NCBI GenBank assembly: GCA_963528005.1
Contig: CAURSM010000023.1
Coordinates: 11,211 to 75,210, forward strand
DNA: 64,000 nt
Direction of reading: 5' to 3'
Origin: an uncultured Eubacteriales bacterium
GTDB taxonomy: Bacteria > Bacillota > Clostridia > Lachnospirales > Lachnospiraceae
Below are positions 4,863 to 30,118 of this stretch, one piece after another. A model generated the notes under the pieces. It had not been told where the DNA came from. It was given only the letters and a program-made list of their open reading frames with translations, and ran no database searches. Both the position numbers and the translations under genes were made by a program. Each line of letters opens with the position of its first letter. The stretch's first letter is position 1.

Positions 4863-4873
4863 AATCCCCTCCA

Positions 4874-7640: not shown

Positions 7641-7657
7641 CCCATTTCCTCCCTGTC

Positions 7658-8044: not shown

Positions 8045-8073
8045 AATGATTTGGCTCCTTTTTATAATTTAAT

Positions 8074-9177: not shown

Positions 9178-9199
9178 ATTTGTTTTTCCTTTCTAAATC

Positions 9200-10567: not shown

Positions 10568-10820
10568 TTTTATTCTCCTATTCATTTTTTTGTGTCATGC
10601 GCGCATTTGAAATCCAGCTGTACCCTTATGATTTCTTGCTCTAATTATAGCAAAATGGACCATTCCTCACGTTTCTATATTCAGCTTTATTCTCTTTATT
10701 TCCGGCTTTATTTAACCTTTTATCTTTTCACTCCAACAAATAAATATATTAAAATTAAAGATTATCGAAATTAGTTAATATATATGATACAATGAAAAAA
10801 ATGGAATCTATGGAGGGGTC

Positions 10821-13265: not shown

Positions 13266-15615
13266 TCTTCCAATTATGTTCTTTCGAAGTATGGAAATAA
13301 AAGAACCATTAACCTTTCAGCATGAATCTTATGATTTCATCTATGTGGTATCCGGTAAGCTTACAATTGGCTACCAGGAACAAGAAGCTCCGTATTTTAT
13401 CAGTGATATCTGTCTGGTCAATCCTATGAATAAGGGCACACTGACACCCAAGGAAAACTGTAGCATCTTCCACCTGGGAATTCACCCATACTTTATAGAA
13501 CAATGCCTTGGGAATTACGGAACACTGATCTGCGACTCTGTGTTGGAGCCAGGCAATAATTATACTGCATTGAAAGAGATTTTAATCAATATTGGAACAA
13601 GATATCTGGAGGGACCATCCGAGAATCATTTAAGCATCTTAAGTCTCTTGTTTGAGCTTATGGATCATTTAAAGAAAGAGAATTATTTTAAACCCGTTCT
13701 TTATGAAAGCATTACAGAAAAGCATGGGGTACGTATCAGCAAGATCATTGATTATATTGACCACCATTATAACGAGCCCTTAACTCTTACCGCACTCTCA
13801 GAGGCCCTTTATTTAACGCCTCAGTATTTGTCGAAATTCTTTCACAAGTACTTGCATCAGAACTTTAAATCTTATCTGATGGAGAAACGGTTGTTTCATG
13901 CATACCGGGATGTTTCTTATACAGATGACCCAATTACAGAAATTGCGATTCGCAACGGCTTTTCCGATGTAACATCATTTGGCAAGGCATTTCGGGCAAG
14001 CTTTCAAATGACTCCCAGCCAATTTCGGAAAAATAAAAACGTCCATATGATTGCAGAGGAATACAAGCAACTGGATCAATACAGCAACGCCATCCTGGTC
14101 TCTGAAAACAGCTACCTTTACAGCAATCAGGTGGATGTAAACATCAATGAAACCGAAGGTTTAAGGAGCAATTACTCCACGCTCCTTAATGTCAGCTCAG
14201 CCAAAAACCTGCTATCTGAAAATTACAGAAGGCTTTTATTAGAGTCAAGAAAATCCCTTGGCTTTAGTTACCTTCGAATTCAGGGAATCTTAAGCTCCTC
14301 CTTTATTCCAAGGGTATTACCAGATTATAATTACTATTTCCTTGATCTTGATGACATCATGCATTTTATGCAGGACCACAACCTGATTCCTTTCATCGAC
14401 CTTACACGGCTGAGCCATGCTTTTTATGAACCAGGGGGAACCTTTCAGGATTCCTTATCTTCCTTGAAAAACAACCGTTTCTTTGAATTACTCCAGGCTT
14501 TTTTAGTCTTTAGTTCTCAAAGTTATCCAAAGGAATGGACCTCACAGTGGACGTTTGAATTATGGAAATTACCAAGGGAGTCACCAAGCCAATATGCCAA
14601 TGATTTTAAGCTGATTCAGGAGTCGATCCAGGCGTATCTTCCTGGTGCCTCCCTTGGTGGGCCTGGCTTTGATTCCAGGGAAAGTTTAAAGGATCTTGAT
14701 GAGATCCTGAAACTGCTATTTCAAGCAGACAGGAAACCCGCCTTTATTTCTACTCATCTTTCCCTCATGAAGCAGCCAGAGTCTTCAAAGGCAATTGTCA
14801 GCATGGATCAGAATCTTCCACTGAATTTGGCACAAAAAATCAAAAAATTGATTCACAAATATGATAAGCAAATGCCTTTTTACATTACGGAATGGAATTC
14901 TATTTCACTAACCGAACTGCCGATACAGTATTCCTGTTATCAGTCGGCCTATATATGCAAGACATGTCTGGATCTAAATTCCGTTAGTGATTTAATGGGT
15001 TATTGGCTGTTTAGCGATACATCAACCCAAACAAGTCCGATAAAACAAAAAGCCTTTTATTTTTGGGGCTCCGGGCTTATTAACAAAGATAACATAGCTA
15101 TGCCTGCCTTTTATGCGTTTCAAATGCTGGAACGCCTTGGCACTGTAATTATTAAACGAGGAGAAAACTTCTGCGTCACCCGAAAAGGTCCAGACCATTA
15201 TCAGATTATGTGCTTTAATTACGCTCACCCCCGATCTTCCTGCCTCTATGAAAACGGGAAATATTCCTCATTCTCCAATGTTTATAAGCTATTCGAGGAG
15301 GTTCCTGCCGTTAATTTCCGTTTTCTTCTACACGGAATCACCCCAGGCAAGTACCGTATTTCAAGGTTTCTTTTAGATCGGTCCCATGGCAGCATTCTGG
15401 ATATCTGGATCGGTGGTTTTGTCAGAAGCAACATAAGCGAAACAGAATATCTTATGGATATTAAACTTCCCTCAGCCTCCCAGTTAAATTATCTTCTAAA
15501 AGCCTGCATTCCGGAAGAACGAAATATTTACTCTTATGCAGAGGATTATTTGGAGGTGGAAACCTCCATTCTTGCCCACAATGTTTGCGTGTGGGATATT
15601 ATAAGACAGGTCTAA
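13237..15615 (+). CDS. AraC family transcriptional regulator fused to a GH39-like pseudo-glycosidase sensor domain (paralog of 10821..13265)
   Basis: Canonical AraC HTH (LTPQYLSKFFHKYL...IAIRNGFSDVTSFGKAFRASFQMTPSQFRK). The GH39-like domain has WTFELWKLP in place of WNEP and retains ITEWN. The ATG at 13237 follows GGAGG and overlaps the upstream gene end; the track start is at 13183. Confidence 0.7.
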   Translation: MNWYQNLPTNLPIMFFRSMEIKEPLTFQHESYDFIYVVSGKLTIGYQEQEAPYFISDICLVNPMNKGTLTPKENCSIFHLGIHPYFIEQCLGNYGTLICDSVLEPGNNYTALKEILINIGTRYLEGPSENHLSILSLLFELMDHLKKENYFKPVLYESITEKHGVRISKIIDYIDHHYNEPLTLTALSEALYLTPQYLSKFFHKYLHQNFKSYLMEKRLFHAYRDVSYTDDPITEIAIRNGFSDVTSFGKAFRASFQMTPSQFRKNKNVHMIAEEYKQLDQYSNAILVSENSYLYSNQVDVNINETEGLRSNYSTLLNVSSAKNLLSENYRRLLLESRKSLGFSYLRIQGILSSSFIPRVLPDYNYYFLDLDDIMHFMQDHNLIPFIDLTRLSHAFYEPGGTFQDSLSSLKNNRFFELLQAFLVFSSQSYPKEWTSQWTFELWKLPRESPSQYANDFKLIQESIQAYLPGASLGGPGFDSRESLKDLDEILKLLFQADRKPAFISTHLSLMKQPESSKAIVSMDQNLPLNLAQKIKKLIHKYDKQMPFYITEWNSISLTELPIQYSCYQSAYICKTCLDLNSVSDLMGYWLFSDTSTQTSPIKQKAFYFWGSGLINKDNIAMPAFYAFQMLERLGTVIIKRGENFCVTRKGPDHYQIMCFNYAHPRSSCLYENGKYSSFSNVYKLFEEVPAVNFRFLLHGITPGKYRISRFLLDRSHGSILDIWIGGFVRSNISETEYLMDIKLPSASQLNYLLKACIPEERNIYSYAEDYLEVETSILAHNVCVWDIIRQV

Positions 15616-16867: not shown

Positions 16868-17725
16868 TCATGTTTTCCTGTTCCAAAATTCTTTTATCAG
16901 TTTCACCTGATTGCAATATTCTGTCATACAGTGAATCATCATTAGTTTCATCTCTCTCATAGTTTTATCCCGGTCTGGCTCCGGCTTATAAATAAGCGTT
17001 CCATCTTTCTGAAAGGTCAGGCCATTCCAGTAATGAACTTTTAATTCCCGGCCTGTATCAGTTTCTCTTGTATGCTGGACCATGCACATAACTCTTTCTC
17101 TTGTTTGGATTTCATTTATCTCCTCTGCTTTCCCACCAAGTCCCATGAGAAAAATACATTGAGGATCACGCTTAGAGATATCTTCCTTATGGATTCCCAA
17201 ATGTTCAAAACAAAAGTTGTTCCAATTCATCTCCATCCGCATCATTCCCCAGCCAAAGTCCTCAATCGCACCGTCTTCAAAATGAATGAGATGGGCCCCT
17301 GGATACCACGTTTTATAAAACAGGTTACAGTTTTCGTCATTAGCAAAACCTTCCTGGTAGTTTTTAATCATCTCATCCGTAATTCCGTCCTGCACGATTT
17401 TAATTGCAGCAAAGCCGATTCCATTAGACAACACTCCATAGCCATTTTCCGGATACGTATTACTCCCATCAAGAAGTATGCTTCCGGCAAGCTCTGGCAT
17501 ATAACATTCCTCTGGTTTAAGCGGTCCATGTTCCACTGCCCTTACATGCTCCGGCTGAAGCTCTGCCAGCGGTTCATAATAATATTTTGCAAAAGCAGAT
17601 TCACTCTCTTTCTTCGTTAACCCTATTGTCATATTTCTTAAATCTTCTAAGGAAACCTCATTCATCATTCTCCCGCAGGTACGAGGTGATACCATTATTT
17701 TTCCCTTACTAAATACACAAGCCAT
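16868..17725 (-). CDS. phloretin hydrolase / 2,4-diacetylphloroglucinol hydrolase (PhlG) family protein, putative
   Basis: 285 aa, the size of Phy/PhlG. It has a C-terminal H-x3-E pair (IHCMTEY) like the second His/Glu zinc ligands reported for PhlG, plus upstream WYPGAHLIHFED. It is next to TetR/MFS genes and near a chalcone isomerase homolog. GGAGG lies 7 nt before the ATG. Confidence 0.55.
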   Translation of the reverse strand: MACVFSKGKIMVSPRTCGRMMNEVSLEDLRNMTIGLTKKESESAFAKYYYEPLAELQPEHVRAVEHGPLKPEECYMPELAGSILLDGSNTYPENGYGVLSNGIGFAAIKIVQDGITDEMIKNYQEGFANDENCNLFYKTWYPGAHLIHFEDGAIEDFGWGMMRMEMNWNNFCFEHLGIHKEDISKRDPQCIFLMGLGGKAEEINEIQTRERVMCMVQHTRETDTGRELKVHYWNGLTFQKDGTLIYKPEPDRDKTMREMKLMMIHCMTEYCNQVKLIKEFWNRKT

Positions 17726-17912: not shown

Positions 17913-18545
17913 ATGGAGGCAAAAAGTGATAAAAAGCCAGGGAAGGGGCTACTGACAAAGAAAACCATAGCTGATTCCTATCTTGCTATGATTCCTTTTA
18001 AAAAGTGGGATAAAATTACGGTTAAGGAAATTTGTGCTGAGGCAGATATTACAAGGGGTACCTTTTATCTATATTACAATGATATTTATGACTTGATGGA
18101 ACAGATAGAAGCATCACTTCTTTCAGAACTGACAAAGAGATATTCAACACTTACAGATGACGATTCCTCTGCCTCATTTTCGAGAGATCTCCTATCCTTT
18201 GATGTGACCCCTCCTGCTATGTTTTTGACCTGGTTTGATTTTTGTAAAGATTATAAACGGGAAATGATTGCTTTATTGGACCGAAAGAATGGGGATATGT
18301 ATTTTATAAGTAAATTAAAGCATTTCTTATTAATCCATATCAATAACATCATGGATCGGGACGGATTACCTAAGGATGGACTCCGAACTCATTTTTCAAA
18401 GATATTTTTGGAGCTTCATTTAATGGCAGCTCAGACCTGGTTAGAGCAGGGAGACGACCAGTTTTTATCAACAGATGAAATCGTAAATCTTTTAAATACC
18501 ATGCGGGTTGGAGCCAGATATTTGTCCTACCGTAAACTTGTCTAG
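17913..18545 (+). CDS. TetR/AcrR family transcriptional regulator
   Basis: N-terminal HTH (ITVKEICAEADITRGTFYLYYNDIYDL). It is divergent from the hydrolase gene. Confidence 0.8.
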   Translation: MEAKSDKKPGKGLLTKKTIADSYLAMIPFKKWDKITVKEICAEADITRGTFYLYYNDIYDLMEQIEASLLSELTKRYSTLTDDDSSASFSRDLLSFDVTPPAMFLTWFDFCKDYKREMIALLDRKNGDMYFISKLKHFLLIHINNIMDRDGLPKDGLRTHFSKIFLELHLMAAQTWLEQGDDQFLSTDEIVNLLNTMRVGARYLSYRKLV

Positions 18546-18604
18546 AAAGTTTGTATGATCCTAAGCGAGTTATCTGCTCTCGTCGCAAGTGCTTCTTATT
18601 GCAC

Positions 18605-18634
18605 AAAAAAGCTACAGACATTTCTGCCTGTAGC
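18605..18634 (-). terminator. Rho-independent terminator ending the long minus-strand unit
   Basis: On the minus strand, GCTACAGGCAGAAATGTCTGTAGC is followed by TTTTTTG. This is the first clear hairpin plus U-tract downstream of 28961. Confidence 0.7.
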
Positions 18635-18655
18635 CTAAATAAAAACATACTTTTT

Positions 18656-19870
18656 TTATGGATTTTTAATAAGCGCTGCAATGATAATTCCCACAACGAT
18701 AGCGCCCAGTAAGAAAAATAACGTACTAAAATAAGAACCACTAGAATCGTAGAGATAACCAGCAATGGTACTTCCAAAGGAAGCAAAAAATAAATTCATA
18801 TTTAGCACTGAAAAATTAATACTATAATTTTTTCTGCCATAAAAGGAACCTACAAAAGCTGAATTAGTCGTAGGTACGCCACCGTAGGCAAGCCCTGTTA
18901 ATATAAATCCCATAATCAGGATATAAAAGCTTCCGGTGCTTAATGATAAGATCAGAGATATAATGGCACTGCAAAACAAAACTTCATTGATGATCATTGT
19001 TTTTACACGGCCAAACCGATCAAACATTCCACCAAATATGACGCGTCCTATTCCATTAAAGATGGAGATCAATCCTACAACCGTGGCTATGGTCCCTGCA
19101 GAAGCCTCCGGCTTCACGGAAATAGCGATTGCTCCAGCCTGTGATATAACCGCAAGACCAGCAGCGCACAAAAGAATTGCCCATATGAAATAAAGCCAGA
19201 AGGAACTTCTTTTAATCATTTGTCTAAAATTCATTTCCTCAACGTTTACAATTTCACTATTATTAATTTCTTTCGTCATTCTTTCTGTTAAAGCCGCTGT
19301 CTCTTCGGCATTTGGCTTTCTAATAAACAACGCACTCAATAGCATAACGATAAAAAGAATAATTCCAAACAGTAATAAAGACCTTCGAAAGCTTTCTCCA
19401 GTTCCTGTAAAAGCCTGATATACCTTACCAATCAAGAAACTACCAAATCCAAATCCCATAAGAAGAATTCCTGAAATCAGACCCGGTTTATCCGGGAAAA
19501 ACTTTGTAACAGCGCCCATAATGGAATTATAGGCAATTCCAGATGCGGTTCCAGAAAGCACACCGTATCCAATGTAAAGGCCTATCAGTGAATTTGTTTT
19601 TGATGCGATAACAAATCCTCCTAAAAACAAAAACGCAGAAACAACCATATTTATTTTAACATTTACTTTTCCTGATAAAAGACCAGCAAAAAAACCTCCA
19701 AGACAAAAAAACATCATACAGATGGTAAAGGTCATGGAAAGCTGCGCACTGCTCCAATCAGTGAAGTATGCAGAAACCGGCCTGGAAATAACACTCCAGG
19801 CATAAATAAGTCCTGCAAATAATAACACCAGTACTCCCATTGCGGCATAAAGCCATCGCTTGTATTTCAT
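18656..19870 (-). CDS. MFS transporter (oxalate/formate antiporter-like subfamily)
   Basis: 404 aa, 12 TM segments, 15 nt downstream of the CHI homolog. Confidence 0.75.
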   Translation of the reverse strand: MKYKRWLYAAMGVLVLLFAGLIYAWSVISRPVSAYFTDWSSAQLSMTFTICMMFFCLGGFFAGLLSGKVNVKINMVVSAFLFLGGFVIASKTNSLIGLYIGYGVLSGTASGIAYNSIMGAVTKFFPDKPGLISGILLMGFGFGSFLIGKVYQAFTGTGESFRRSLLLFGIILFIVMLLSALFIRKPNAEETAALTERMTKEINNSEIVNVEEMNFRQMIKRSSFWLYFIWAILLCAAGLAVISQAGAIAISVKPEASAGTIATVVGLISIFNGIGRVIFGGMFDRFGRVKTMIINEVLFCSAIISLILSLSTGSFYILIMGFILTGLAYGGVPTTNSAFVGSFYGRKNYSINFSVLNMNLFFASFGSTIAGYLYDSSGSYFSTLFFLLGAIVVGIIIAALIKNP

Positions 19871-19885
19871 TGCTTCATTTCTCCT

Positions 19886-20722
19886 CTATCTTCTGGGCAT
19901 ATATCCACGGTACTGGCTATAAGCATCACAGGTCGGAACATCCTTGATGAAAATGCCTCTAATTTCAAATCCTGGTTTTAAATACGGAAATACATCACCT
20001 TCAGCTGCCCAGAAAGGTGCTTTAATTTTATCAGAAGTTTCTATGGCGATACGATGCCACGCCGTCGGACCTGTAAACCACATTTCAACAACTCGTCCCA
20101 TAGGGCAATTATTAATTGTTTGGTCTACTTTACTGGTAAGAATTCTTGTACAGCAGGAATTCTCAATAAAGAATGGAAATACCTCTTCAAACAACCACTT
20201 ATCACCATCTTCCTGGGATACTCCATCCGGATAGGATAAAGCAAAGTTCCAACAGTAATTAGGCCCATCTTCTAACATACGGCCAACTCCCTTAATATCT
20301 TCTTCCCACCACATAGGGCAAAATGCAAAGACAAATGGCGGGCAGCCATTGTTACCACCTGAACTGCGCCCTGCATCTCCAGTCAGCATTACTTCGCTTA
20401 CAGTCTGAGGAACAGTACCTTGCCACTTTAAGACTTCAATGGGGGTATATTCCTGAAAGGCTTTTACCTTCAAAGCTGCATCCATAATATCGACGTTCCA
20501 ATGGTGTTCGGTCAACTGCATACGCACCGTTCCAAATCGTTCTCCACCTGGAGGCACTGGAAGAGCATCAAAAAAAGCATATTTACCACAATAAGGCTCA
20601 AACTGAGCAATACTTTCTGGAATATGATGATAATACAACCAATGATGCAGTCTATGCCTATATTCTTCATCAATTACATCTACATATATAAAACTTCTCA
20701 TAGGATTGAATTCGATTGCCAT
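19886..20722 (-). CDS. chi: bacterial chalcone isomerase (Eubacterium ramulus CHI family) homolog
   Basis: It shares blocks that I recall from E. ramulus CHI: FNPMRSFIYVD, HIPES (the position of the catalytic His), QFEPYCGKYAF, RMQLTEHHW, FVFAFCPMWWEED, KWLFEE, FPYLKP and C-terminal YRGY. The length of 278 aa is similar to that enzyme. Confidence 0.8.
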   Translation of the reverse strand: MAIEFNPMRSFIYVDVIDEEYRHRLHHWLYYHHIPESIAQFEPYCGKYAFFDALPVPPGGERFGTVRMQLTEHHWNVDIMDAALKVKAFQEYTPIEVLKWQGTVPQTVSEVMLTGDAGRSSGGNNGCPPFVFAFCPMWWEEDIKGVGRMLEDGPNYCWNFALSYPDGVSQEDGDKWLFEEVFPFFIENSCCTRILTSKVDQTINNCPMGRVVEMWFTGPTAWHRIAIETSDKIKAPFWAAEGDVFPYLKPGFEIRGIFIKDVPTCDAYSQYRGYMPRR

Positions 20723-20723
20723 G

Positions 20724-21236
20724 TTAATTTCCCCTTTTTAACTTTCTCCGTAATAATATTTTTGTAAAATAATCCACCCCACACCCCACGTACCATACTC
20801 CTACAGCCATGGCGATTCCAATTTGAATCGGCAAGGTTTTTTCCGCCTGTATGTCTTTGAAAGACATCAGACTTAAACCGATGGCCCATCCGCATAACCA
20901 GGAAGGTAGAAATACAAAGTGTTCAAATATAGAAGCGATAACAACTGCCAACGCACCTAAAACTGCTAATGTAACAAACAACTCCAACGTTTCATTCCAA
21001 TTCACTACTTCCATGATTATTAAAGAAAGGACCGCCCATAAATTGCCAAGCCAAAAGCCTGCGGTAATCTTTACGCCATCCTCAATCCGGTTGCCATTTG
21101 TTGAGTACAGCCCCGCACAAATCAATGCCACGGCTCCTGTTTTAATTCCCAGGTGTGGAGCAGATACCGCCCATAAGGGCGGTAAAAGTCCAATAGCAAG
21201 AGCCAAAACTAATTGTTCTTTCTTTTTTTCATCCAT
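20724..21236 (-). CDS. small polytopic membrane protein (possibly DUF1097-like)
   Basis: 170 aa with 4-5 hydrophobic helices. It lies 1 nt upstream of chi and 6 nt downstream of the FMN reductase paralog. Confidence 0.5.
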   Translation of the reverse strand: MDEKKKEQLVLALAIGLLPPLWAVSAPHLGIKTGAVALICAGLYSTNGNRIEDGVKITAGFWLGNLWAVLSLIIMEVVNWNETLELFVTLAVLGALAVVIASIFEHFVFLPSWLCGWAIGLSLMSFKDIQAEKTLPIQIGIAMAVGVWYVGCGVDYFTKILLRRKLKRGN

Positions 21237-21242: not shown

Positions 21243-22187
21243 TTACACACGCTCACATAAAAAAGAAGAGGCAATGGAATCCATATAGCGTTTTTTACGA
21301 AGTTTAAATTCTTCTGTCTGGCGTACTTTTGCAAATGCACCTTCCATACGCTGAATATCATCTCCATGAATAAACTTTCCTGGGATTGTGTCATGAGCGT
21401 GTTCTAATTGTTCTACTGGGAAAACAAATTTTGTCTTTCCATCTTCAATCACAACATCTCCCACCATTCCGCATAAGCCACAGATAGCATTTGTAGATTC
21501 GTTATCCAGATAAAAGAGCTTATTATGACAATGAGGACATAATCCTTCTTCTCCCTGATAAGCAGCATTCTCTACATCTTTTGCGGCATTTGCTAATTTC
21601 ACACCAATTTTATGTACTTCAGCCAAACGTACGTCATCCATAATGAGCTCTTTCGCCCATGGATACCAGGTATTATCAATAATCTTCCACATTGGGGTGA
21701 GAGCCTGCATCGCATGTTCGCATTGAACTCTGGTTCCCCAGTCAGAACCTCCTACTCCCATGTAAGAAATCACTTTATCCTTTAGAATCCTTGGATCGAT
21801 TGCCTTTCCACCATTCTCCTCTGCTATCTTGGAACCAATGATGTTGTTTCCACGATCCATTCTAGGTCCGAAACGATCCATAATAGTATGGAATAGGCCA
21901 GAAGCCCCTTCCTCAAAGATAGGATCAGATATAATAATTCCATCTGCATCAAGCATTTTGTCTAAAAGCCAGTCAAAGTCATCCTTTATGACACACATAT
22001 TTCCTTTTCCACCTAATAGTGTCTTTACACAAGCACAACAACCGGTGCAATGCTTGATATCCAGTGATGACATTCTAATAAACTCTACCTCAGCACCTGT
22101 TTCCTTCGCTCCCATTAACGCTTCCATACAGATAGAATCATTTGTTCCGTTCTTTGTTCCAAAAGAAATACCTAAAACCTTCATCAT
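21243..22187 (-). CDS. iron-sulfur flavoprotein-like / NADPH-dependent FMN reductase family protein with C-terminal Cys4 extension (paralog 2; candidate flavone-reductase-type ene-reductase)
   Basis: MMKVLGISFG flavodoxin-like start, CTGCCAC...C cluster and CPHCH...CGLCG. It is colinear with 598..1563 over its full length. Confidence 0.7.
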   Translation of the reverse strand: MMKVLGISFGTKNGTNDSICMEALMGAKETGAEVEFIRMSSLDIKHCTGCCACVKTLLGGKGNMCVIKDDFDWLLDKMLDADGIIISDPIFEEGASGLFHTIMDRFGPRMDRGNNIIGSKIAEENGGKAIDPRILKDKVISYMGVGGSDWGTRVQCEHAMQALTPMWKIIDNTWYPWAKELIMDDVRLAEVHKIGVKLANAAKDVENAAYQGEEGLCPHCHNKLFYLDNESTNAICGLCGMVGDVVIEDGKTKFVFPVEQLEHAHDTIPGKFIHGDDIQRMEGAFAKVRQTEEFKLRKKRYMDSIASSFLCERV

Positions 22188-22209: not shown

Positions 22210-23598
22210 TTAATTTTCTTTCATTTTTAAAATATAAAATCCATCATCAAGGGCATCAATGATGATATAACCTCTATCATCTACCACAATATCCTCTGTT
22301 ACCGCCATACGAGGCCCCGGAAAACCTGGGAAAAATGATTCCTCTGGTTTTTTATTGGGATTTGGTGGAATAAAGTAAGCAATTTCCTTGATATAATATG
22401 GATCTGATACATCATAAACCCTAAGTCCTGCATGGAAATAACAGCAGTACACACGGTCTCCCCTCTGCTCCAGCCATGGTTTCTTATCCATAGGTTCATG
22501 TAGGTTATGAGGACCAAATGGGCCTGCCACTCCAAGTCCAGCTACATTAAAGTTTGGATATGGGAAGTCCTTTGGAACTTCCGGATATGGAAACTCAGCA
22601 ATCAAAGTAGGCTGTTTGGGGTCACTGACATCGATCATGTGTATGTTGTTTAATGCCTGAGCTCTTTTTATCCTATCTGGTGTAAAGAACTGGAAACGTT
22701 CTCCTTCGTTTTGACATACGACCAGATCACGCCCTGGCAGCGGGACTGCTGTATGGGTTCTTGCCCCTGATAACTCACTGGAGAATGCAGGCATCAGCGA
22801 TAATTCTCCCAGGCATTTCGGTCTTTCTACGTCCTGAACATCAAGAACTACCAGTCCTGCTCCGCCATAGCCGCAGTAAGCGATTCCATCACGAACAAAT
22901 GGCGGTCCGTGAAGCCAGCCTTTATCCATAAAGGAAGGAACGTGAGCGGCACCTGGATCAAAGTTTCGATCTGGATATCCGTCTGCATACTGATCTGGTC
23001 TCCACCAGCGTCCTGCTTCCACTGGACTCGTGGGGTCTTCAATATCAATAATGCGGTAAATCATTCCTTCAAAGCCTACGCAGTCACTGGATAAATGAAC
23101 ATATCTTCCACCGTTATACTGAAAACGGTGCACTCCAAGTACATGCTTTAATCCACAATCCCAATAGCCCAAAAATTCCGGATTCTCTGGGTCATTTTTC
23201 AGACTGTAAATTCGAATTCCTGCCTCACATTTTATATCAGCAAGTTTTGCCTGATCCACAAGGGCTCCTGGTCCGCTGCCGCAACTCATAGCTACAATCA
23301 TCAGATCGTCGGCAATCTGAATCTTGGGAGATGTAGTTGTTGGATACTCCTTCGGATTAACGAGTTCAAAGTGCTTCACAAATTTGGGATCATAAGGATC
23401 TGTTACATCACTAATCATGACCCCGTTCTTTGTTCCGCCAAAGCAGCAGCCATACAAATAATACTTACCTGCTGATGTTTTATAAAGGGCCATCTGGAAC
23501 ATCCCGCAGGTTCCATCTAAATCACTAAAAGAGCAAACTTCCAAATTTTTAATAAAACCGTTGTTTCCCTCTCCCTTAGCATAAAAATTATCTTTCAT
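22210..23598 (-). CDS. cytoplasmic LVIVD-repeat beta-propeller protein, function unknown
   Basis: 462 aa with repeated hydrophobic-strand plus D motifs (LMIVAM, RIIDIEDP, LVVLDVQD, IHMIDVSDP, LRVYDVSDP, YIIIDALDDG). No signal peptide. The start is 12 nt after the buk stop, with AGAGG as SD. Confidence 0.6.
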   Translation of the reverse strand: MKDNFYAKGEGNNGFIKNLEVCSFSDLDGTCGMFQMALYKTSAGKYYLYGCCFGGTKNGVMISDVTDPYDPKFVKHFELVNPKEYPTTTSPKIQIADDLMIVAMSCGSGPGALVDQAKLADIKCEAGIRIYSLKNDPENPEFLGYWDCGLKHVLGVHRFQYNGGRYVHLSSDCVGFEGMIYRIIDIEDPTSPVEAGRWWRPDQYADGYPDRNFDPGAAHVPSFMDKGWLHGPPFVRDGIAYCGYGGAGLVVLDVQDVERPKCLGELSLMPAFSSELSGARTHTAVPLPGRDLVVCQNEGERFQFFTPDRIKRAQALNNIHMIDVSDPKQPTLIAEFPYPEVPKDFPYPNFNVAGLGVAGPFGPHNLHEPMDKKPWLEQRGDRVYCCYFHAGLRVYDVSDPYYIKEIAYFIPPNPNKKPEESFFPGFPGPRMAVTEDIVVDDRGYIIIDALDDGFYILKMKEN

Positions 23599-23610: not shown

Positions 23611-24693
23611 CTACTGATTTTTCCTGCTATCTATGTAAGGCTCAGCTTCTTCCTCTCCCTTTAAAATACGAAGGGCACCTGCAGTTAAAGCTTCCAATTC
23701 ATTCTCGCCTGGCATAACCATGATCGGAGCCAGCTTGCTTACATATTCTTTAATCCACTGTGTCAACATTTGGGAATGAGCCACTCCGCCTGTTAAAATG
23801 ATAGCATCAACTTCTCCCTTTAAAACGGGAATGAGTTCACCAATTCCTTTTGCAATCTGGTACGCTTGCGCCTGGAATATTTTCTTCGCCAACTCGTTGC
23901 CATCCTGAATCATCTTCTCCACTTCAATACAGCTGGAAGTGCCAAGATAGGCTTTCATACCGCCCATACCGGAAACTTTTTTCTTCATATCCCTTTTACT
24001 GTAAGTTCCGCTGTAACACATGTCGATTACGTAATTTAATGGTATGCTTCCTGATCTTTCTGGAGAAAAAGGACCTCCATCGGCTGGAATTGCATCTACT
24101 ATTTTACCCTTTTCATGAGCACTGACTGAGATTCCACCACCTAAATGGGCAACAATAAAGTTCATTTCCTGATATGTTTTTCCCAATTCAGATGCTGCTT
24201 TTCTTGCCATTGCCTTGGAGTTTAATACATGACAAAAACTTTGTCTTACTACCTCTGGCATTCCGGTTACTTTTGCAATCTCTGCCATTTCATCAGAACC
24301 TACCGCATCATAGATATAGGCAGGTATGCCCAGAGGCGCTGCAATGGCATCTGAAATCAAAGCACCCAGGTTCGATGCGTGTTCAATGGTAGAAGGATCT
24401 GTTAGCTTTTTTCTCATATCCTCTGTCACCAGATAACCACCTGCATGGATATTTACCAGCTGGCCGCCTCTTCCCACAACTGCAGATAATTCCTTCACAT
24501 CTACGCCATGTTTATCTAGTGCATTTAGAATATTTTCCTTACGCATGTCAAATTCATCTACCACTCTGTCATACTTTTTTAACTCTTCATCAGAATGTGT
24601 AACGCTTTCTGTAAATAACTCTTTCTCGCCTTCGTAAACTCCGATTTTTGTGGAGGTAGAGCCAGGGTTAACTGCTAAAATTTTATAACTCAT
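23611..24693 (-). CDS. buk: butyrate (short/branched-chain acyl) kinase
   Basis: The N-terminus ILAVNPGSTSTKIGVY and the overall ASKHA-fold sequence are typical of Buk. Confidence 0.9.
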   Translation of the reverse strand: MSYKILAVNPGSTSTKIGVYEGEKELFTESVTHSDEELKKYDRVVDEFDMRKENILNALDKHGVDVKELSAVVGRGGQLVNIHAGGYLVTEDMRKKLTDPSTIEHASNLGALISDAIAAPLGIPAYIYDAVGSDEMAEIAKVTGMPEVVRQSFCHVLNSKAMARKAASELGKTYQEMNFIVAHLGGGISVSAHEKGKIVDAIPADGGPFSPERSGSIPLNYVIDMCYSGTYSKRDMKKKVSGMGGMKAYLGTSSCIEVEKMIQDGNELAKKIFQAQAYQIAKGIGELIPVLKGEVDAIILTGGVAHSQMLTQWIKEYVSKLAPIMVMPGENELEALTAGALRILKGEEEAEPYIDSRKNQ

Positions 24694-24708: not shown

Positions 24709-25614
24709 TTAATCTACTGCCGCTGCTGAAACTGCAATGGATAAGAATTTTTCCTCTGCAGACGATCCTCTGGAAGTTAATACAATCGGACATTTTGCTC
24801 CAACTACAAACCCTGCCATCTTCGCCTTACAAGTACAGGTCAGCATCTTACCCATGATATTTCCTGCATGGATGTTAGGAGCCACCAGCACATCAACATC
24901 ACCAGCAATTTGGCTTTCATAGTTTTTGAGCTTGGCAATCTCTGCATCAATGGCACAATCATAGGAAATAGGGCCTTCTATGATACAGTTCTTGATTTCG
25001 CCTTCCTGATTCATACGGGCAAGCTCTGCCGCTTCCACTGTTTCCGGCATTTTAGGGTTCACTTTTTCTACGCAGGTTAAAACTCCCACTTTCGGACAGT
25101 CGTAGCCCATGGATCTTAAGGTTTCCACCGTATTTTCAATGATGGATTTCTTTTGTTCCAAAGTCGGATAGGCAACCATGCCTCCGTCTACAGGTACTAA
25201 TATTTTATGGTAGGAAGGAACATCAAACATAGAAAAATGGGACATAACACCGCCTTTTCCCAAGCCTTTCTCTTTGTCAACCACCGCCTTTAAAAGTATA
25301 GCCGTATCCAAATATCCCTTCATTAAAAAATCTGCTTTTCCTTCTCGAATCAAAGAGACCGAAAATTCGGCAGCCTCTTTGTTATCAGTGGCTAAATAGA
25401 TGTCCTCTTCTGGAACCTCTTCTCCAAGCTTTTTTAATATTCCAAGAATTACTTCTTTATCACCCACTAATATAGGTCCGGCGATTCCTTCTTTTCTGGC
25501 ATGCAGAGCAGCTTCAAGAGTATGTTCCTCTCCTGCCGCAGCGATTACCATTCGTTTCATGGAAGGAAATTTTTTTACTTTATCAATTAATTCATCAAAA
25601 CTTCTATAGATCAT
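24709..25614 (-). CDS. ptb: phosphate butyryltransferase (phosphotransacylase)
   Basis: 301 aa of Pta/Ptb family sequence, immediately upstream of buk. Confidence 0.85.
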   Translation of the reverse strand: MIYRSFDELIDKVKKFPSMKRMVIAAAGEEHTLEAALHARKEGIAGPILVGDKEVILGILKKLGEEVPEEDIYLATDNKEAAEFSVSLIREGKADFLMKGYLDTAILLKAVVDKEKGLGKGGVMSHFSMFDVPSYHKILVPVDGGMVAYPTLEQKKSIIENTVETLRSMGYDCPKVGVLTCVEKVNPKMPETVEAAELARMNQEGEIKNCIIEGPISYDCAIDAEIAKLKNYESQIAGDVDVLVAPNIHAGNIMGKMLTCTCKAKMAGFVVGAKCPIVLTSRGSSAEEKFLSIAVSAAAVD

Positions 25615-25626: not shown

Positions 25627-26172
25627 TTATCTTTGTGACTGACCAATTGAAAGACCTCTTTCAAAAGCTAGTTTATTAAGAGGAAGGAGCTTTGGTTTGC
25701 TTTTCAGTTTATGCTCAATGGTTGACCATACAATTTCCGGATCAATAACATTTGTAAATCCTACATATACACCAAGCATAATCACATTTAGTACCTTTGC
25801 ATTTCCAAGTTCCAAGGCAAGCTCCGTAACAGGTGCTTTCACTATTTTAACGTCGCTTCTTTCTATCTCATCCGTAACAATGGAACTGTTAATAAAAAGC
25901 GTTCCTCCCTGTTTTAACGTGGGCAAAAACTTTTGTAAGGATGGTCCGTTCATGATAACCAAATCGTCCATCACATCACCAAGAGGAGCTCCAATGGTTT
26001 CATCGGAAATTACAACAAAACAATTGGCGGTACCACCTCTTTGCTCCGCTCCGTAAGAAGGGAAAAACGTAACATTTTTATTTGTAGAATCACAGGTTGC
26101 CGAAGCCAGGAATTTTCCAAGGGTCATAACACCCTGTCCGCCAAAACCGGCCACACACAAATTTGTCTCCAT
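25627..26172 (-). CDS. 2-oxoacid:ferredoxin oxidoreductase gamma subunit
   Basis: 181 aa with GFGGQGV near the N-terminus, typical of POR/VOR/KOR gamma subunits. Confidence 0.85.
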   Translation of the reverse strand: METNLCVAGFGGQGVMTLGKFLASATCDSTNKNVTFFPSYGAEQRGGTANCFVVISDETIGAPLGDVMDDLVIMNGPSLQKFLPTLKQGGTLFINSSIVTDEIERSDVKIVKAPVTELALELGNAKVLNVIMLGVYVGFTNVIDPEIVWSTIEHKLKSKPKLLPLNKLAFERGLSIGQSQR

Positions 26173-26185
26173 TCAATTTTCCTCC

Positions 26186-26923
26186 TTATCGATCTCTGAT
26201 TACACCCAGAGGAAATTCCGGGAGCATCTTCTCTTCTATAAAATCAAGAGATTTCATTGCATCAAGCCCCCAGTTTGTCGGACAGCTGGTGACTATTTCT
26301 ACCATGGAAAATCCTTTGCCCTCAAGCTGGTTTTGAAATGCCTTTTGAATTGCTTTCTTTGTTTTCATTACATTGACTGGGGTATTGCAGCTAGTCCGTT
26401 CTAAATAAGCCGGAGCCGTCAGTTGGTCTAATATCTCACACATGTGCATGGGATAACCATGTTCCTTAGGATCACGACCCTTGGGAGCGGTGCTCGCCTT
26501 CATGCCTACTAAGGTGGTAGGAGCCAATTGTCCGCCAGTCATACCGTAAATACCATTGTTAATGAAAATAACTGTGATATTCTCTCCTCGATTGGCTGCT
26601 GACATGGATTCCCCCAAACCGATGGAAGCAAAATCTCCATCTCCCTGATATGTAAATACAAGACTGTCAGGACTTGCCTTTTTCATTCCAGTCGCCACTG
26701 CACAGGCACGACCATGAGGCGCTGTCGTATTGTCATAGGCCATATAGTCCATCTGAAGACCACAGCAGCCGATTCCAAGGACGCAAGCCGCCTTGTCCAC
26801 CAAATTCATCTCATCTAATACTTCTCCGATCAGCTTCATTACAGTGCCATGCATGCATCCAGGACAAAAGCCAGAAACTTTATCCTCCTGAATGGTTTTT
26901 GTTCTTGCATAAATCTGCTTCAT
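26186..26923 (-). CDS. 2-oxoacid:ferredoxin oxidoreductase beta subunit (TPP-binding)
   Basis: FCPGCMHG and the GDGD TPP/Mg motif (YQGDGDFASIG). Confidence 0.85.
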   Translation of the reverse strand: MKQIYARTKTIQEDKVSGFCPGCMHGTVMKLIGEVLDEMNLVDKAACVLGIGCCGLQMDYMAYDNTTAPHGRACAVATGMKKASPDSLVFTYQGDGDFASIGLGESMSAANRGENITVIFINNGIYGMTGGQLAPTTLVGMKASTAPKGRDPKEHGYPMHMCEILDQLTAPAYLERTSCNTPVNVMKTKKAIQKAFQNQLEGKGFSMVEIVTSCPTNWGLDAMKSLDFIEEKMLPEFPLGVIRDR

Positions 26924-26933
26924 CTTTTCCCTC

Positions 26934-28019
26934 CTATTTTGAAACCATTTTTCTTACTGCTTCCATTACTGCCTCACGGCTTATAATGTTGCCACCTGAG
27001 CAAAGGCAGGTTTCAATGGGGCAGCGCCCTTTCACACCAGTTTCCACATCCGTTACAAACTGGGCAGGAATAGACATCTCAACATCAAGAACTGCTTTTA
27101 CCTTGCTATAATCGATGTGGTCAAATGCGCTGTAAGGAAATGGCTGAACGGTTATGGCACGAAGAAGCCCTACCTTTATGCCCTCTTTCCGCAATAAATC
27201 CACAGCCGCTTTTGCGATACGGGCTGATATTCCATAGGCCGTAATCACTACCTCTGCATCTTCGATCAGATATTCTTCCGCCAGGGCCTCTTTCTCCCAG
27301 CTTTTATAAAGAGCTGCTGCTTCTTCGTTAGCCACCTGCATATCGCTGGTTTTCCAATGTCCTGGCTGAATCCAGGAACGGTTTGCAAGGTCTAGTGGAT
27401 GTCCAATACAGGACCAGGATTTCTTTGACTCTTTGATGGACGCAATCTCTTCATCCGGTTTCATTTCCGGAAGTACGACAGGCTCCATCATTGTTCCAAT
27501 AACTCCATCTGCTAAAATAAGCACCGGATTTCGATCGCGGTCTGCATAATCAAATGCCTGATACGTCATATCTACAGCTTCCTGTACCGATGCTGGTGCA
27601 AACACAAGCATTTGAAATCCACCGTTACCGGATGCCTTGGTCGCCTGATAGTAATCCATCTGCGCCGGTTGAATGGAACCAACTCCAGGGCCACCTCTAG
27701 AAACATTGACATAGACCATGGGGATTCTGGCTGATGCACAGTAAGAGATTCCCTCGCTCTTTAGCGCAATTCCAGGACTTGATGAAGATGTCATGGATCT
27801 GACACCCGCACTGGCAGCTCCATACACCATGTTTACGGAAGCTACTTCTGATTCTCCCTGTACAAAATTACCGTTTACTTCCGGCATTCTTCTTGCAAAA
27901 TATTCCGGTATTTCATTCTGAGGAGTAATTGGATAACCAGCAAAAAATCGACAACCGGCTCTAACTGCTGCTTCTGCTATTGCTTCGCAGCCTTTCATAA
28001 ACACTCTAGACATTTTCAA
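26934..28019 (-). CDS. 2-oxoacid:ferredoxin oxidoreductase alpha subunit
   Basis: KGCEAIAEAAVRAGCRFFAGYPITPQNEI is the canonical alpha-subunit N-terminus. Confidence 0.85.
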   Translation of the reverse strand: MKMSRVFMKGCEAIAEAAVRAGCRFFAGYPITPQNEIPEYFARRMPEVNGNFVQGESEVASVNMVYGAASAGVRSMTSSSSPGIALKSEGISYCASARIPMVYVNVSRGGPGVGSIQPAQMDYYQATKASGNGGFQMLVFAPASVQEAVDMTYQAFDYADRDRNPVLILADGVIGTMMEPVVLPEMKPDEEIASIKESKKSWSCIGHPLDLANRSWIQPGHWKTSDMQVANEEAAALYKSWEKEALAEEYLIEDAEVVITAYGISARIAKAAVDLLRKEGIKVGLLRAITVQPFPYSAFDHIDYSKVKAVLDVEMSIPAQFVTDVETGVKGRCPIETCLCSGGNIISREAVMEAVRKMVSK

Positions 28020-28030
28020 TAACCTCCTGA

Positions 28031-28234
28031 TTACTTATAAACTTCTATGGCACCATCGGGACAAATTTTTCCGCAAATGCAACAACCAATACAAGCTTCC
28101 ATATTTGACGGAATCACATATTCATAACCCTTTGAATTCACTTTTGTTCCAACTGTCAAAACGCTTTTGGGGCAGAACTTTATGCAGTAACCACAACCTT
28201 TGCAGCGTTCCGCAACCACTTTTATTTCAGCCAT
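28031..28234 (-). CDS. 2-oxoacid:ferredoxin oxidoreductase delta subunit (2x[4Fe-4S] ferredoxin)
   Basis: CKGCGYCIKFCP and CIGCCICGKICP. I prefer the internal ATG at 28234 (MAEIKVV); the track start at 28276 would overlap the upstream gene. Confidence 0.75.
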   Translation of the reverse strand: MAEIKVVAERCKGCGYCIKFCPKSVLTVGTKVNSKGYEYVIPSNMEACIGCCICGKICPDGAIEVYK

Positions 28235-28253
28235 ATCCTTCATTTCCTCCTTC

Positions 28254-28961
28254 TTATACAGACTCCATAGATACAACCCAGGGATAGGTAAGATAAAGAT
28301 GCAAGGGCATTACAGGAATATTTAGCTTATACTTCACCTTATCAAAAAGTTCTTCTCTCACACAGACAAAATCCAGTTCCTTATAAGTCATGATTAGTTC
28401 TGTAAGTTTTTTATTCCCCTCCAGAACTTCTATTTCATTGGTATGACACCCTATATTAGGATTACTAATTAAGTGAAGCTTACCGATATCTATATGTGAT
28501 ACGCTCAAGATTTCACTTAGCACTTTATCAATGCGTTCCAGATCATAAGACCATGGCCGATAAGGATTGATTACGTAATAAACCATAGTATCGCCTCGGT
28601 TAATCAAGGGCGCAAAACCACCTATGGATCTGGCCCCAATATAATCTCCACCTACATCCATAACAACATAAGTTTCCTCATCCTTTAGGAATCTACTTAC
28701 GCCGCCTACCAGAGTTGGCGCATCCATAAACTGTTCTTCATAATGAAAATCAATTCCCAACTCTGTAAAGCTCCGGCTAAGATCCCTGGAACGGAACAAC
28801 GGTTTTGTCATGTCCATATCAAAGAAATGTACCTTCTTATTTCCTGAATCCACAAGCTGCTTTGCAATATTAACTGCGATTTCACTTTTCCCGCAGCCTG
28901 CTTCACCAATAAATAAGAAATTATTATATTTCTCATCTATTATTGGAACTTCCTTGTTCAT
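28254..28961 (-). CDS. P-loop NTPase of unknown function (SIMIBI/MinD-Mrp-like)
   Basis: Walker A GEAGCGKSE and Walker-B-like VVMDVGGD. It is the first gene of the long minus-strand unit. Confidence 0.55.
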   Translation of the reverse strand: MNKEVPIIDEKYNNFLFIGEAGCGKSEIAVNIAKQLVDSGNKKVHFFDMDMTKPLFRSRDLSRSFTELGIDFHYEEQFMDAPTLVGGVSRFLKDEETYVVMDVGGDYIGARSIGGFAPLINRGDTMVYYVINPYRPWSYDLERIDKVLSEILSVSHIDIGKLHLISNPNIGCHTNEIEVLEGNKKLTELIMTYKELDFVCVREELFDKVKYKLNIPVMPLHLYLTYPWVVSMESV

Positions 28962-29221: not shown

Positions 29222-30118
29222 ATGAATTTAAGACAATTAGAATATTTTGTTTCCGTAGCAGAAACATTAAGTTTTACAAAGACAGCAGAAAAGTTTTTTA
29301 TTTCTCAGACGGCTGTCACGCAGCAAATCAAAGCATTAGAAGAACAGATAGAAGTGAAACTATTAAGACGAACCAAGCGGCATGTGGAGCTGACTCCGGC
29401 AGGAAGTATATTCTTAACCGAATCGAAAGCCATACTTAGCCGGACTGAAAATGCAATTCAAAAAACAAAAAAAGCCGCAACCGGCTTTACTGGAAATATA
29501 AATCTCGGTATTATAGAAGGGTATGATAACCCCGATCTTCCTGGCATTCTCCGTTCCTTTCGTACCGGATATCCCAACATTTCCATTTCCATTCAGGAAG
29601 GGGGAGCAGGTCCTTTATATTTGCAGCTATTGAACCAGACTCTTGATGTGGTTATCAATGCCCGCTTTTCCTATAGCAAGCTGGAAGATAAAAAGATTTC
29701 CTATAAGATAATGAAAAAGTACAAATTAATTGTTATGCTTCCTACCACGCATCCTCTGGCTTACCGAAGTATTTTGAATCTTTACGACTTAAAAAATGAT
29801 TCTTTTATTTTCACTTCCTTTGGTGATGCGGAAGACAGCTTTGGTCATTTTGAGAGCACCATAGCTCATTTTATACGGTCTGGCTTTACCCCTCATATCG
29901 TGCAACATTCCGTAAATTTTAACACAACCGCACTTATGGTGGCCGCTAATATGGGGGTGGCGGTATTGCCCTCTTATGCTCTTTCTTCCAGTAGAAACAT
30001 TGAAAATCTGGTAACAATTCCTCTTGATGAGGAAGCTGATAAGTTTGAAATTGTGGCCGCCCGTTTTAACGAAAACATGAACCCTACAATTGATAAATTC
30101 TTGTCCTATATAAAATAA
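29222..30118 (+). CDS. LysR family transcriptional regulator
   Basis: The N-terminal HTH is MNLRQLEYFVSVAETLSFTKTAEKFFISQTAVTQQIKALE. It is divergent from the 12-gene unit across a 260-bp AT-rich region. Confidence 0.9.
   Translation: MNLRQLEYFVSVAETLSFTKTAEKFFISQTAVTQQIKALEEQIEVKLLRRTKRHVELTPAGSIFLTESKAILSRTENAIQKTKKAATGFTGNINLGIIEGYDNPDLPGILRSFRTGYPNISISIQEGGAGPLYLQLLNQTLDVVINARFSYSKLEDKKISYKIMKKYKLIVMLPTTHPLAYRSILNLYDLKNDSFIFTSFGDAEDSFGHFESTIAHFIRSGFTPHIVQHSVNFNTTALMVAANMGVAVLPSYALSSSRNIENLVTIPLDEEADKFEIVAARFNENMNPTIDKFLSYIK

Follow-up and report, generated by a model that had tools for sequence, protein, structure and literature searches.

An LVIVD-repeat beta-propeller as candidate metal-dependent auronol hydrolase in bacterial flavonol degradation

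A stretch of 64,000 nucleotides from an uncultured Eubacteriales bacterium of the Lachnospiraceae (GenBank assembly GCA_963528005.1, contig CAURSM010000023.1), which was analysed over its whole length and is referred to here as the window, contains an operon of 12 genes whose eighth gene (22210..23598, minus strand, ATG start) encodes a protein of 462 amino acids with LVIVD repeats. Gene context and homology lead us to propose that this protein, a predicted seven-bladed beta-propeller, may be a metal-dependent hydrolase that converts the auronols alphitonin or maesopsin to phloroglucinol and an arylpyruvate, and we assign this reading a probability of roughly 45%. In whole cells of E. ramulus, quercetin is degraded via taxifolin and alphitonin to phloroglucinol and 3,4-dihydroxyphenylacetate (DOPAC; cited in PMC11170127), and C. 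decagia likewise converts alphitonin to DOPAC (PMC11170127). Enzymes have been assigned as far as alphitonin, with the flavone/flavonol reductase FLR producing taxifolin from quercetin and the chalcone isomerase CHI producing alphitonin from taxifolin (PMC11170127; PMC13515148). The subsequent cleavage of alphitonin to phloroglucinol and 3,4-dihydroxyphenylpyruvate was postulated by Goris and Braune in 2024 (PMC11170127) and is listed without an enzyme in a review from 2026 (PMC13515148). The LVIVD propeller is the best candidate for this step, since the pathway has one reaction without an enzyme, the operon has one soluble protein without an assigned function, and this protein has a metallohydrolase fold with candidate ligands. 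The propeller fold and the kinship with metallohydrolases are of known kinds, but no known kind covers the substrate, the bond type and the role in the pathway that are proposed here. The initial annotation of this DNA had suggested a new catabolic enzyme, for example an auronol-cleaving hydrolase or lyase of the propeller fold, and the evidence described below, which is drawn from sequence, lends support to this suggestion.

A compact propeller related to a metallohydrolase

An LVIVD-repeat protein had been placed at this position by the initial annotation, which gave no strand; the open reading frame listing of the window contains the gene on the minus strand, with a purine-rich ribosome site (AGAGAGG) 7-8 nt 5' of the start codon. 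The product scores 29.7 bits (E 3.9e-7) with the Pfam family PF08309 (LVIVD), for which the gathering score is 20.2, a match that is weak but real, as the individual repeats are each non-significant, and most of the homologs also carry a precomputed PF08309 match. The sole match in a scan against NCBIfam was the sub-threshold 'choice-of-anchor B' model, and PF18089 (DAPG_hydrolase) did not match the propeller even at an E of 0.01. No signal peptide or membrane segment was found in the protein by hydropathy (maximum 19-residue Kyte-Doolittle mean of 1.1, N-terminal maximum of 0.97), and according to the alignment and the AlphaFold2 model the N-terminus is conserved among homologs and contributes strands at residues 15-25 that close the propeller. 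The lack of a hydrophobic N-terminal or membrane segment, together with the conserved and structural N-terminus, indicates a cytoplasmic location, which agrees with the earlier claim that a signal peptide is missing. In contrast, the founding members of PF08309 from Methanosarcina, other archaea and bacteria are of large size, are secreted or located at the cell surface, and contain numerous repeats of other types (PMC2447325). The window protein has the repeat signature in common with these proteins but does not have their cell-surface or secreted location, and it is a compact single-domain propeller with a conserved putative metal site.

The AlphaFold2 model, which was obtained from a 20-sequence alignment (pLDDT 87.8, pTM 0.90), comprises seven groups of four strands, corresponding to 28 blade strands, in addition to the N-terminal closing strands, and the predicted structure thus shows the propeller of approximately 42-residue repeats by which PF08309 is defined. 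When the predicted structure was compared with the PDB by Foldseek, the top match was a metallohydrolase, Sb-PTE (5HRM, E 5e-17, TM 0.62), the haloalkylphosphorus hydrolase of Sphingobium sp. TCM1, which contains binuclear Mn (PDB 5HRM, 5IOJ). It was the only specific structural match, at 13-15% identity in the Foldseek alignment, and the remaining matches were generic WD40 or designed propellers with an E of 4e-9 or weaker, the generic WD40 propellers scoring approximately 1e-8. The relationship, as judged by homology, was also found in profile comparisons with 5HRM, both with profile A1 (E 2.1e-5) and with the broader profile A2 (E 2.4e-12), and a distant family member of 30% identity (L080) matched 5HRM alone with an E of 2.8e-10. 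A literature search, in which subscription journals were thinly covered, found no publication assigning a function to the LVIVD propeller family. The earlier statement that no biochemistry is known for LVIVD proteins was nevertheless not quite right, with Sb-PTE being a characterised remote relative. Both proteins are seven-bladed propellers with LVIVD-like blades, but Sb-PTE is longer (583 amino acids) owing to insertions and an N-terminal extension, and it cleaves the P-O bonds of xenobiotic flame retardants, whereas C-C bond cleavage in a polyphenol context is proposed for the window protein.

Candidate metal ligands were sought in an alignment of ten sequences (A3), with identities to the window protein of 85% for C. 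difficile, 74% for E. ramulus, 73% for the Lachnospiraceae protein P0122 from a Catenibacillus-containing cluster, 58% for L091, 57% for Leptolinea, 56% for F. plautii, 45% for the Actinomycetes protein L062, 43% for C. drakei and 35% for the Acetobacteraceae subfamily L077. Eight residues, Q35, Q94, H157, H230, H282, E298, H364 and D436, are invariant in all ten sequences, that is down to 35% identity. They map to the first-strand starts of blades 1 to 7, with E298 in the adjacent loop of blade 5 (DSSP), and blade-position reasoning from the DSSP string of the AlphaFold2 model suggests that they would form a ring at one mouth of the central channel. The L080 alignment sets the invariant GVH157RF motif on 'NIH258MV' of Sb-PTE, so that H157 corresponds to His-258. 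We take the ligands of the binuclear Mn in Sb-PTE to be His-258, His-317, His-389, Glu-407 and His-475, a list that is reportedly due to Mabanglo and coworkers in 2016, and HMMER fragments of Sb-PTE confirm a Glu at 201, a His at 258 and a Glu at 407. By spacing and blade position only, H230, H282, E298 and H364 parallel the presumed ligands His-317, His-389, Glu-407 and His-475, respectively. As the bridging Glu-201 of Sb-PTE is apparently not conserved, the site may be described as a putative His-rich site that is either mono- or binuclear.

Most of the propellers found by Foldseek are interaction scaffolds, and the original description of the LVIVD repeat came from surface proteins (PMC2447325), which would be in line with a non-catalytic binding, scaffold or protective protein, for example in polyphenol sequestration or enzyme docking. 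We consider such a role highly improbable in view of the very high sequence conservation (60-89% identity across families and 100 or more invariant columns in A1), the putative ring of invariant His, Glu and Asp residues at equivalent blade positions, and a homology that is specific to a metallohydrolase and not to scaffold propellers.

Operon organization and proposed pathway

The 12 genes extend on the minus strand from 28961 to 18656 with every gap being 22 nt or less, in the order CbiA-like, VOR delta, alpha, beta and gamma, Ptb, Buk, LVIVD, FLR, DUF1097, CHI and MFS (Table 1), VOR being a four-subunit 2-oxoacid:ferredoxin oxidoreductase. The end of the CbiA-like gene overlaps the VOR delta start by 23 nt, and the gaps leading to FLR, DUF1097 and CHI measure 22, 6 and 1 nt, respectively. 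The spacing that had been reported earlier is exact, with 12 nt separating the LVIVD gene from buk and 22 nt separating it from the FMN reductase gene, and the names given to the neighbours buk, FMN reductase and CHI were confirmed by an NCBIfam equivalog and by matches to PDB 7D38 and PDB 4D06. The FMN reductase neighbour, however, had been called a paralog, which was wrong: the protein is a true ortholog of FLR, whose function is described in PMC7862272, and matches the crystallised FLR (PDB 7D38) with an E of 1e-136 over residues 2-305, while a distant paralog of approximately 31% identity is encoded elsewhere in the window (Table 1). The CHI protein gives a full-length match, with an E of 3e-87, to the chalcone isomerase of E. 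ramulus (PDB 4D06), which in that organism also forms alphitonin from taxifolin. The terminator-like hairpin downstream of the MFS gene scores best among those of the region. An open reading frame at 18370-18786 on the minus strand (138 amino acids, TTG start) was considered as a 13th gene and rejected, as 131 nt of it lie within the MFS gene, it runs across the terminator, and it has neither a ribosome site nor a family match; it is probably not a gene. None of the public runs that hold the LVIVD sequence is an RNA run; they are metagenomes or low-depth DNA-like contigs from strains 95-99% identical, with no direction information.

Table 1. Positions, strands and supporting evidence of genes and other features. 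Positions without a locus prefix refer to the window.
Feature	Position	Strand	Evidence or remark
LysR-type regulator, divergently transcribed	29222..30118	+	ORF
CbiA/MinD-like P-loop protein, first operon gene	28254..28961	-	Weak Pfam CbiA match; maturation role possible
VOR	25627..28276	-	Pfam POR_N, PFOR_II
VOR delta	28031-28276	-	
VOR alpha	26934-28019	-	VorB subfamily 426.8 bits vs cut-off 399
VOR beta	26186-26923	-	
VOR gamma	25627-26172	-	
Ptb, phosphate butyryltransferase-family phosphotransacylase	24709..25614	-	Pfam PTA_PTB 152 bits; NCBIfam 324, below 399 cut-off
Buk, butyrate-kinase-family acyl kinase	23611..24693	-	NCBIfam TIGR02707 equivalog, 467 bits vs 289
LVIVD 7-bladed beta-propeller, candidate metal-dependent auronol C-C hydrolase	22210..23598	-	PF08309, AlphaFold2, Foldseek
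FLR ortholog, FMN_red domain and Zn ribbon	21243..22187	-	Pfam FMN_red; PDB 7D38
DUF1097 membrane protein, recurrent cassette member	20724..21236	-	Pfam PF06496, 74 bits
CHI, bacterial chalcone isomerase	19886..20722	-	Pfam Chalcone_N 166 bits
MFS transporter, last operon gene	18656..19870	-	Pfam MFS_1; NCBIfam lactate or oxalate/formate-type, below cut-off
Intrinsic terminator-like hairpin	18609..18636	-	12-bp stem and T run, 20 nt after MFS stop
Phy-like (DAPG_hydrolase) C-C hydrolase, separate unit with own MFS gene	16868..17725	-	Pfam PF18089, 47.8 bits
AraC-regulator/GH39 fusion ORF	13183-15615		Overlaps next
AraC-regulator/GH39 fusion ORF	10821-13265		
Region with xylose-isomerase-like TIM barrel, GFO/IDH/MocA oxidoreductase, MFS_2 sugar transporter	6588-15615		
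VprA-like FAD reductase	4874-6325	-	Vinyl phenol reductase model 279 bits, below cut-off
NuoF-like and NuoG/GltD-like Fe-S flavoproteins	1588-4874	-	
Distant FMN_red paralog	598-1584	-	Approximately 31% identical to FLRs
205-aa protein	L085:8044-8664	-	
205-aa protein	L086:9358-9975	+	
205-aa protein	L089:10904-11530	+	
205-aa protein	L090:9359-9976	+	
205-aa protein, weaker homolog	L040:11888-12430	+	
HPAD large subunit, C. drakei (CP020953)	L082:20565-20861		96/99 residues identical to PDB 2Y8N
Small glyoxalase/VOC-family protein beside CHI	L081:9515-9958		
Small glyoxalase/VOC-family protein beside CHI	L087:13249-13791		
Small glyoxalase/VOC-family protein beside CHI	L088:18003-18341		
AraC-GH39 fusion beside FLR, P. 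paucivorans	L083:3346-5832		
Fumarate-reductase-like flavoprotein, two Phy-like genes, LVIVD	L033:6141-9964		Eubacterium metagenome-assembled genome
Fcr-like reductase, LVIVD	L060:7856-9928		Actinobacterial metagenome-assembled genome

As judged by homology, the operon thus encodes FLR, CHI, the oxidoreductase, Ptb and Buk, and LVIVD is the sole soluble protein without an assigned function. In the proposed pathway FLR would reduce quercetin (or kaempferol) to taxifolin (or dihydrokaempferol), and CHI would form the auronol alphitonin (or maesopsin) by ring contraction. Opening of the auronol hemiketal would give a 1-(2,4,6-trihydroxyphenyl)-3-aryl-propane-1,2-dione, a dicarbonyl that would be bound at the His-rich metal site of the propeller, where a metal-activated water would attack the carbonyl beside the phloroglucinol ring. 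This retro-Friedel-Crafts-type C-C hydrolysis would release phloroglucinol and 3,4-dihydroxy- (or 4-hydroxy-) phenylpyruvate, and VOR, Ptb and Buk would convert the arylpyruvate via arylacetyl-CoA and arylacetyl phosphate to arylacetate and ATP. We propose accordingly that VOR is an arylpyruvate oxidoreductase and, from its gene context, that Buk forms arylacetate and ATP from arylacetyl phosphate and ADP; the arylpyruvate specificity of the three-enzyme module is inferred. By our own calculation, quercetin and two H2O would yield phloroglucinol, DOPAC and CO2 with the gain of one ATP, and this net reaction would be redox-neutral, since FLR uses the 2[H] yielded by the oxidoreductase. The CbiA/MinD-like protein may assist VOR in maturation or by delivering Fe-S clusters, and a conserved counterpart of its gene also precedes the VOR genes in C. 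drakei and six further loci (L001, L006, L050, L052, L056, L063).

The chemistry proposed for the propeller, a metal-assisted hydrolytic deacylation of a phloroglucinol ring, is that of the phloretin hydrolase Phy from E. ramulus and of PhlG, the 2,4-diacetylphloroglucinol hydrolase, and the propeller would, like Phy, serve to free phloroglucinol by C-C cleavage. However, the Phy/PhlG fold is unrelated to the propeller, and Phy acts on dihydrochalcones to give arylpropionates, whereas the propeller would act on auronols to give arylpyruvates. A further C-C hydrolase of anaerobic polyphenol breakdown, the Mn-dependent retro-Claisen enzyme dihydrophloroglucinol cyclohydrolase (DPGC), functions downstream of phloroglucinol and has another fold and family than the propeller (PMC10470551). 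The possibility that the propeller itself is DPGC, which was prompted by homologs in Parasporobacterium and in degraders of the Holophaga type, was rejected, as DPGC belongs to the cyclase/isatin-hydrolase family.

Genomic context across loci

Three organisms that convert flavonols to arylacetates, E. ramulus, F. plautii and Catenibacillus, all have LVIVD homologs: WP_370807867.1 in E. ramulus (74% identical), WP_226916368.1 in F. plautii (56% identical, in a cluster of 1209 sequences) and proteins of Catenibacillus sp., which fall in a cluster whose representative shares 77% identity with the window protein. The family as a whole comprises 2394 clusters at 90% identity (E up to 1e-5), and at 50% identity 7182 representatives were found with an E of up to 1e-3, 115 of which reach 1e-30. 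Relatives are present in at least 591 confirmed stretches of a species-representative genome collection.

The neighbourhood of the LVIVD gene was surveyed in 80 loci with flanks of 10 kb that were scored by tblastn. In the 72 loci with at least 44% identity the most common scored neighbours were CHI (33 loci) and FLR (32 loci), followed by DUF1097 (14), Ptb and/or Buk (13), a VOR-type oxidoreductase (10), the oxidoreductase subunit IorA (10) and an ADP-forming acyl-CoA synthetase (7), while none of these scored neighbours occurred in the eight loci of 30-34% identity. De novo clustering of the neighbouring proteins ranked the LysR family first (33 loci) and CHI second, and for the 25 loci in which CHI was recovered by ORF calling, the gap between LVIVD and CHI had a median of 67 bp. 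The linkage was found in Lachnospiraceae, Clostridioides difficile, Mogibacterium, Aminicella, Oscillospiraceae, Clostridium drakei and Leptolinea. Gene order varies, being LysR-LVIVD-FLR-DUF1097-CHI in C. difficile and FLR-CHI-LVIVD-DUF1097 in Mogibacterium. In Oribacterium and Butyrivibrio CHI is transcribed divergently from LVIVD, and L091 has a CHI-LVIVD-ADH-CHI arrangement. That the linkage is kept while gene order changes argues for selection on the linkage itself. The initial annotation had made its proposal dependent on conserved metal-type ligands among orthologs and on co-occurrence with chi and the FMN reductase gene; the former are the eight invariant residues described above, and the latter is strong and holds across phyla.

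Modules for the conversion of arylpyruvate to arylacetate were found at many LVIVD loci, where they either replace or accompany CHI and FLR. Four non-orthologous versions were distinguished, in which either VOR or IorAB is combined with either the pair Ptb and Buk or an ADP-forming acyl-CoA synthetase, and the IorA protein passes the NCBIfam equivalog for indolepyruvate oxidoreductase (696 vs 651 bits). A reverse survey that started from ten diverse CHI genes revealed a cluster in C. drakei consisting of LysR, LVIVD, CHI, FLR, DUF1097, a sigma-54 regulator, Ptb, the CbiA-like gene, VOR delta, alpha, beta and gamma, and Buk. The identity of its VOR subunits to those of the window is 80% for alpha, 84% for beta and 85% for gamma. 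The next gene after Buk encodes the large subunit of 4-hydroxyphenylacetate decarboxylase (HPAD; Table 1). An arylpyruvate intermediate is supported both by the replacement of VOR by the arylpyruvate-specific IorAB in other lineages and by the joining of the C. drakei module to HPAD, whose placement suggests a route from kaempferol-type flavonols to p-cresol.

These modules also raise the question of whether the family serves a general fermentation of arylpyruvates or aromatic acids, for instance by making or tautomerising arylpyruvate, with the adjacency of CHI and FLR reflecting the clustering of aromatic-catabolic genes. The LVIVD clusters are about ten times as numerous as those of CHI (2394 vs 235), but CHI, which is a rare family, is the tightest and most frequent specific neighbour. 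IorAB or VOR with an acyl-CoA synthetase accompanies LVIVD without CHI or FLR in seven loci (L027-29, L054, L062, L072, L075), LVIVD is found with IorA, Ptb and Buk in Treponema (L036), and the C. drakei cluster ends with HPAD, an enzyme of the tyrosine pathway; conversely, C. difficile, Mogibacterium and Aminicella have the cassette with no oxidoreductase in the 10-kb flanks, and the vicinity contains no conserved aminotransferase or dehydrogenase by which amino acids could enter the module. In our view a general role of this kind is quite improbable.

A function of the propeller as hydrolase or isomerase at another step of the flavonoid pathway, with a Phy-type hydrolase cleaving the auronol, also has to be considered. 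The propeller might open or epimerise the auronol or flavanonol, or it might remove a conjugate (glycoside, sulfate or phosphate ester) prior to FLR. Its nearest characterised relative, a phosphotriester esterase, would fit with such another step. However, the protein is linked to 2-oxoacid oxidoreductases even where CHI and FLR are missing, which puts it beside arylpyruvate rather than ahead of FLR in the pathway. It might also hydrolyse an alpha-hydroxy-dihydrochalcone made by Fcr to phloroglucinol and an aryl-lactate, but this product needs an extra dehydrogenase, which is absent from the operon, and Fcr was not found in the operon or elsewhere in the window. A Phy-like hydrolase is encoded 4.5 kb away within the window, LVIVD adjoins two Phy-like genes in L033 and an Fcr-like old yellow enzyme (OYE) reductase in L060, and L040 carries LVIVD in addition to a Phy-like protein of 205 amino acids. 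In contrast, tblastn detected Phy homologs within the 10-kb flanks of none of the 80 LVIVD loci, and the minimal cassette of C. difficile contains no other soluble candidate. Another step for the propeller is therefore regarded as unlikely, and cleavage of the auronol is retained as its proposed function.

The contexts of L033, where LVIVD follows a fumarate-reductase-like flavoprotein and the two Phy-like genes, and of L060, where it follows the OYE reductase with a BKACE (triacetate-lyase-like) gene nearby, tie the family to phloroglucinol-type polyphenol catabolism beyond the FLR-CHI cassette.

Evidence weighing against auronol cleavage

A number of observations weigh against auronol cleavage by the propeller. 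His-258 is the sole Sb-PTE ligand that was aligned by a tool, the remainder being derived from spacing and the ligand list given above, and the bridging Glu-201 of Sb-PTE is apparently not conserved: its region aligns with T89-Q94, which contains no carboxylate, and it seems to be replaced in the Q94/D97 region. The Phy-like hydrolase of the window, which is outside the operon and separated from it by a TetR gene, could possibly catalyse the same chemistry. About one third of the close homologs are solitary among housekeeping genes, including the E. ramulus gene (L092), which directly follows its own LysR regulator and is otherwise alone; L005, L007, L008, L011, L015 and L084 (P. paucivorans) similarly have housekeeping neighbours besides LysR, and the contexts of these solitary genes are uninformative. 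In P. paucivorans FLR-Ptb-Buk-CHI is found at one place and LVIVD, 82% identical, elsewhere. Actinobacterial loci contain LVIVD with IorAB and an acyl-CoA synthetase and have no CHI or FLR within 10 kb, so that the substrate of the family may be broader or different.

Furthermore, LVIVD is missing from the 10-kb surroundings of some CHI loci. In L086 CHI occurs with Fcr-like, Phy-like and phloroglucinol-pathway-like genes, and in L090 with a Phy-like gene. In favour of the proposed function, on the other hand, is a soluble protein of approximately 205 amino acids that was observed beside CHI-FLR in four loci without LVIVD and is 40-72% identical across phyla (Table 1). Its Pfam matches are limited to DAPG_hydrolase (Phy/PhlG), just below threshold, and BLASTP against the Phy-like protein of the window was non-significant (E 0.21), so that the label Phy-like refers to the sub-threshold Pfam match only. 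Among 44 CHI loci, 35 had only LVIVD, four had only the 205-aa protein, one (L040) had both and four had neither. The 205-aa protein may be a non-orthologous substitute for the propeller, the two being exclusive at a Fisher p of 0.0024, but in a sampling that was biased towards LVIVD, which counts against this line of support. In one of the loci with the 205-aa protein, Alkalibacter L085, a glycyl-radical enzyme and its activase are encoded 6 kb from CHI.

Further genes of the window and of related loci

Further genes of the polyphenol type lie upstream, elsewhere in the window. The distant FMN_red paralog, the adjacent Fe-S flavoproteins and the VprA-like reductase (Table 1) look like a separate NADH-dependent system for the reduction of polyphenols or phenolic acids. 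The TIM barrel, the GFO/IDH/MocA oxidoreductase and the MFS_2 transporter resemble genes for C-glycoside deglycosylation, judged by domain composition alone. The same AraC-GH39 fusion that is encoded twice in this region adjoins FLR in P. paucivorans. Phloroglucinol-pathway genes were not found in the window, and its remaining 35 kb contain unrelated genes.

The cassette in other genomes is accompanied by a membrane protein of approximately 160 amino acids without a Pfam or NCBIfam match (cluster 5, 14 loci). It was seen in Mogibacterium/Anaerovoracaceae (L017-L023, L026, L031), where in Mogibacterium its gene is located between LysR and FLR, and in L006, L048, L050, L052, L056 and L063, and together with DUF1097 it may form an uptake or export system. 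Small proteins of the glyoxalase/VOC family adjoin CHI in Holophaga and in a metagenome-assembled genome of Spirochaetia (Table 1), and VOC proteins 28-47% identical to the Holophaga protein are located beside LVIVD in six loci without CHI (L014, L027, L028, L029, L039, L054); they may be a further component of the pathway or an alternative isomerase.

The cassette was also found in two chromosomes of C. difficile (L002, L003), with 673 and 704 sequences in the corresponding protein clusters. This species forms p-cresol from 4-hydroxyphenylacetate, and dietary flavonols could thus be an unrecognised precursor of p-cresol in C. difficile.

Implications

Flavonol-derived 4-hydroxyphenylacetate has been reported to reverse hepatic steatosis in mice, and the gene set considered in this context comprised FLR, CHI, EnoR and PHY only (PMC9860326), a route which gives arylpropionates and not arylacetates. 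If the propeller cleaves auronols as proposed, it would provide a specific marker for the capacity of metagenomes to form arylacetates from flavonols and would explain the origin of DOPAC and 4-hydroxyphenylacetate from quercetin and kaempferol in gut- and plant-associated anaerobes. The operon of the window would then represent a self-contained, redox-balanced and ATP-yielding system for flavonol fermentation, and the presence of the cassette in C. difficile would be explained, where dietary kaempferol might be converted to p-cresol. Moreover, a function would be assigned to a widespread uncharacterised family, and the bonds cleaved by metallo-propeller hydrolases would include C-C in addition to P-O, with the LVIVD propellers constituting a new class of metal-dependent beta-propeller C-C hydrolases.

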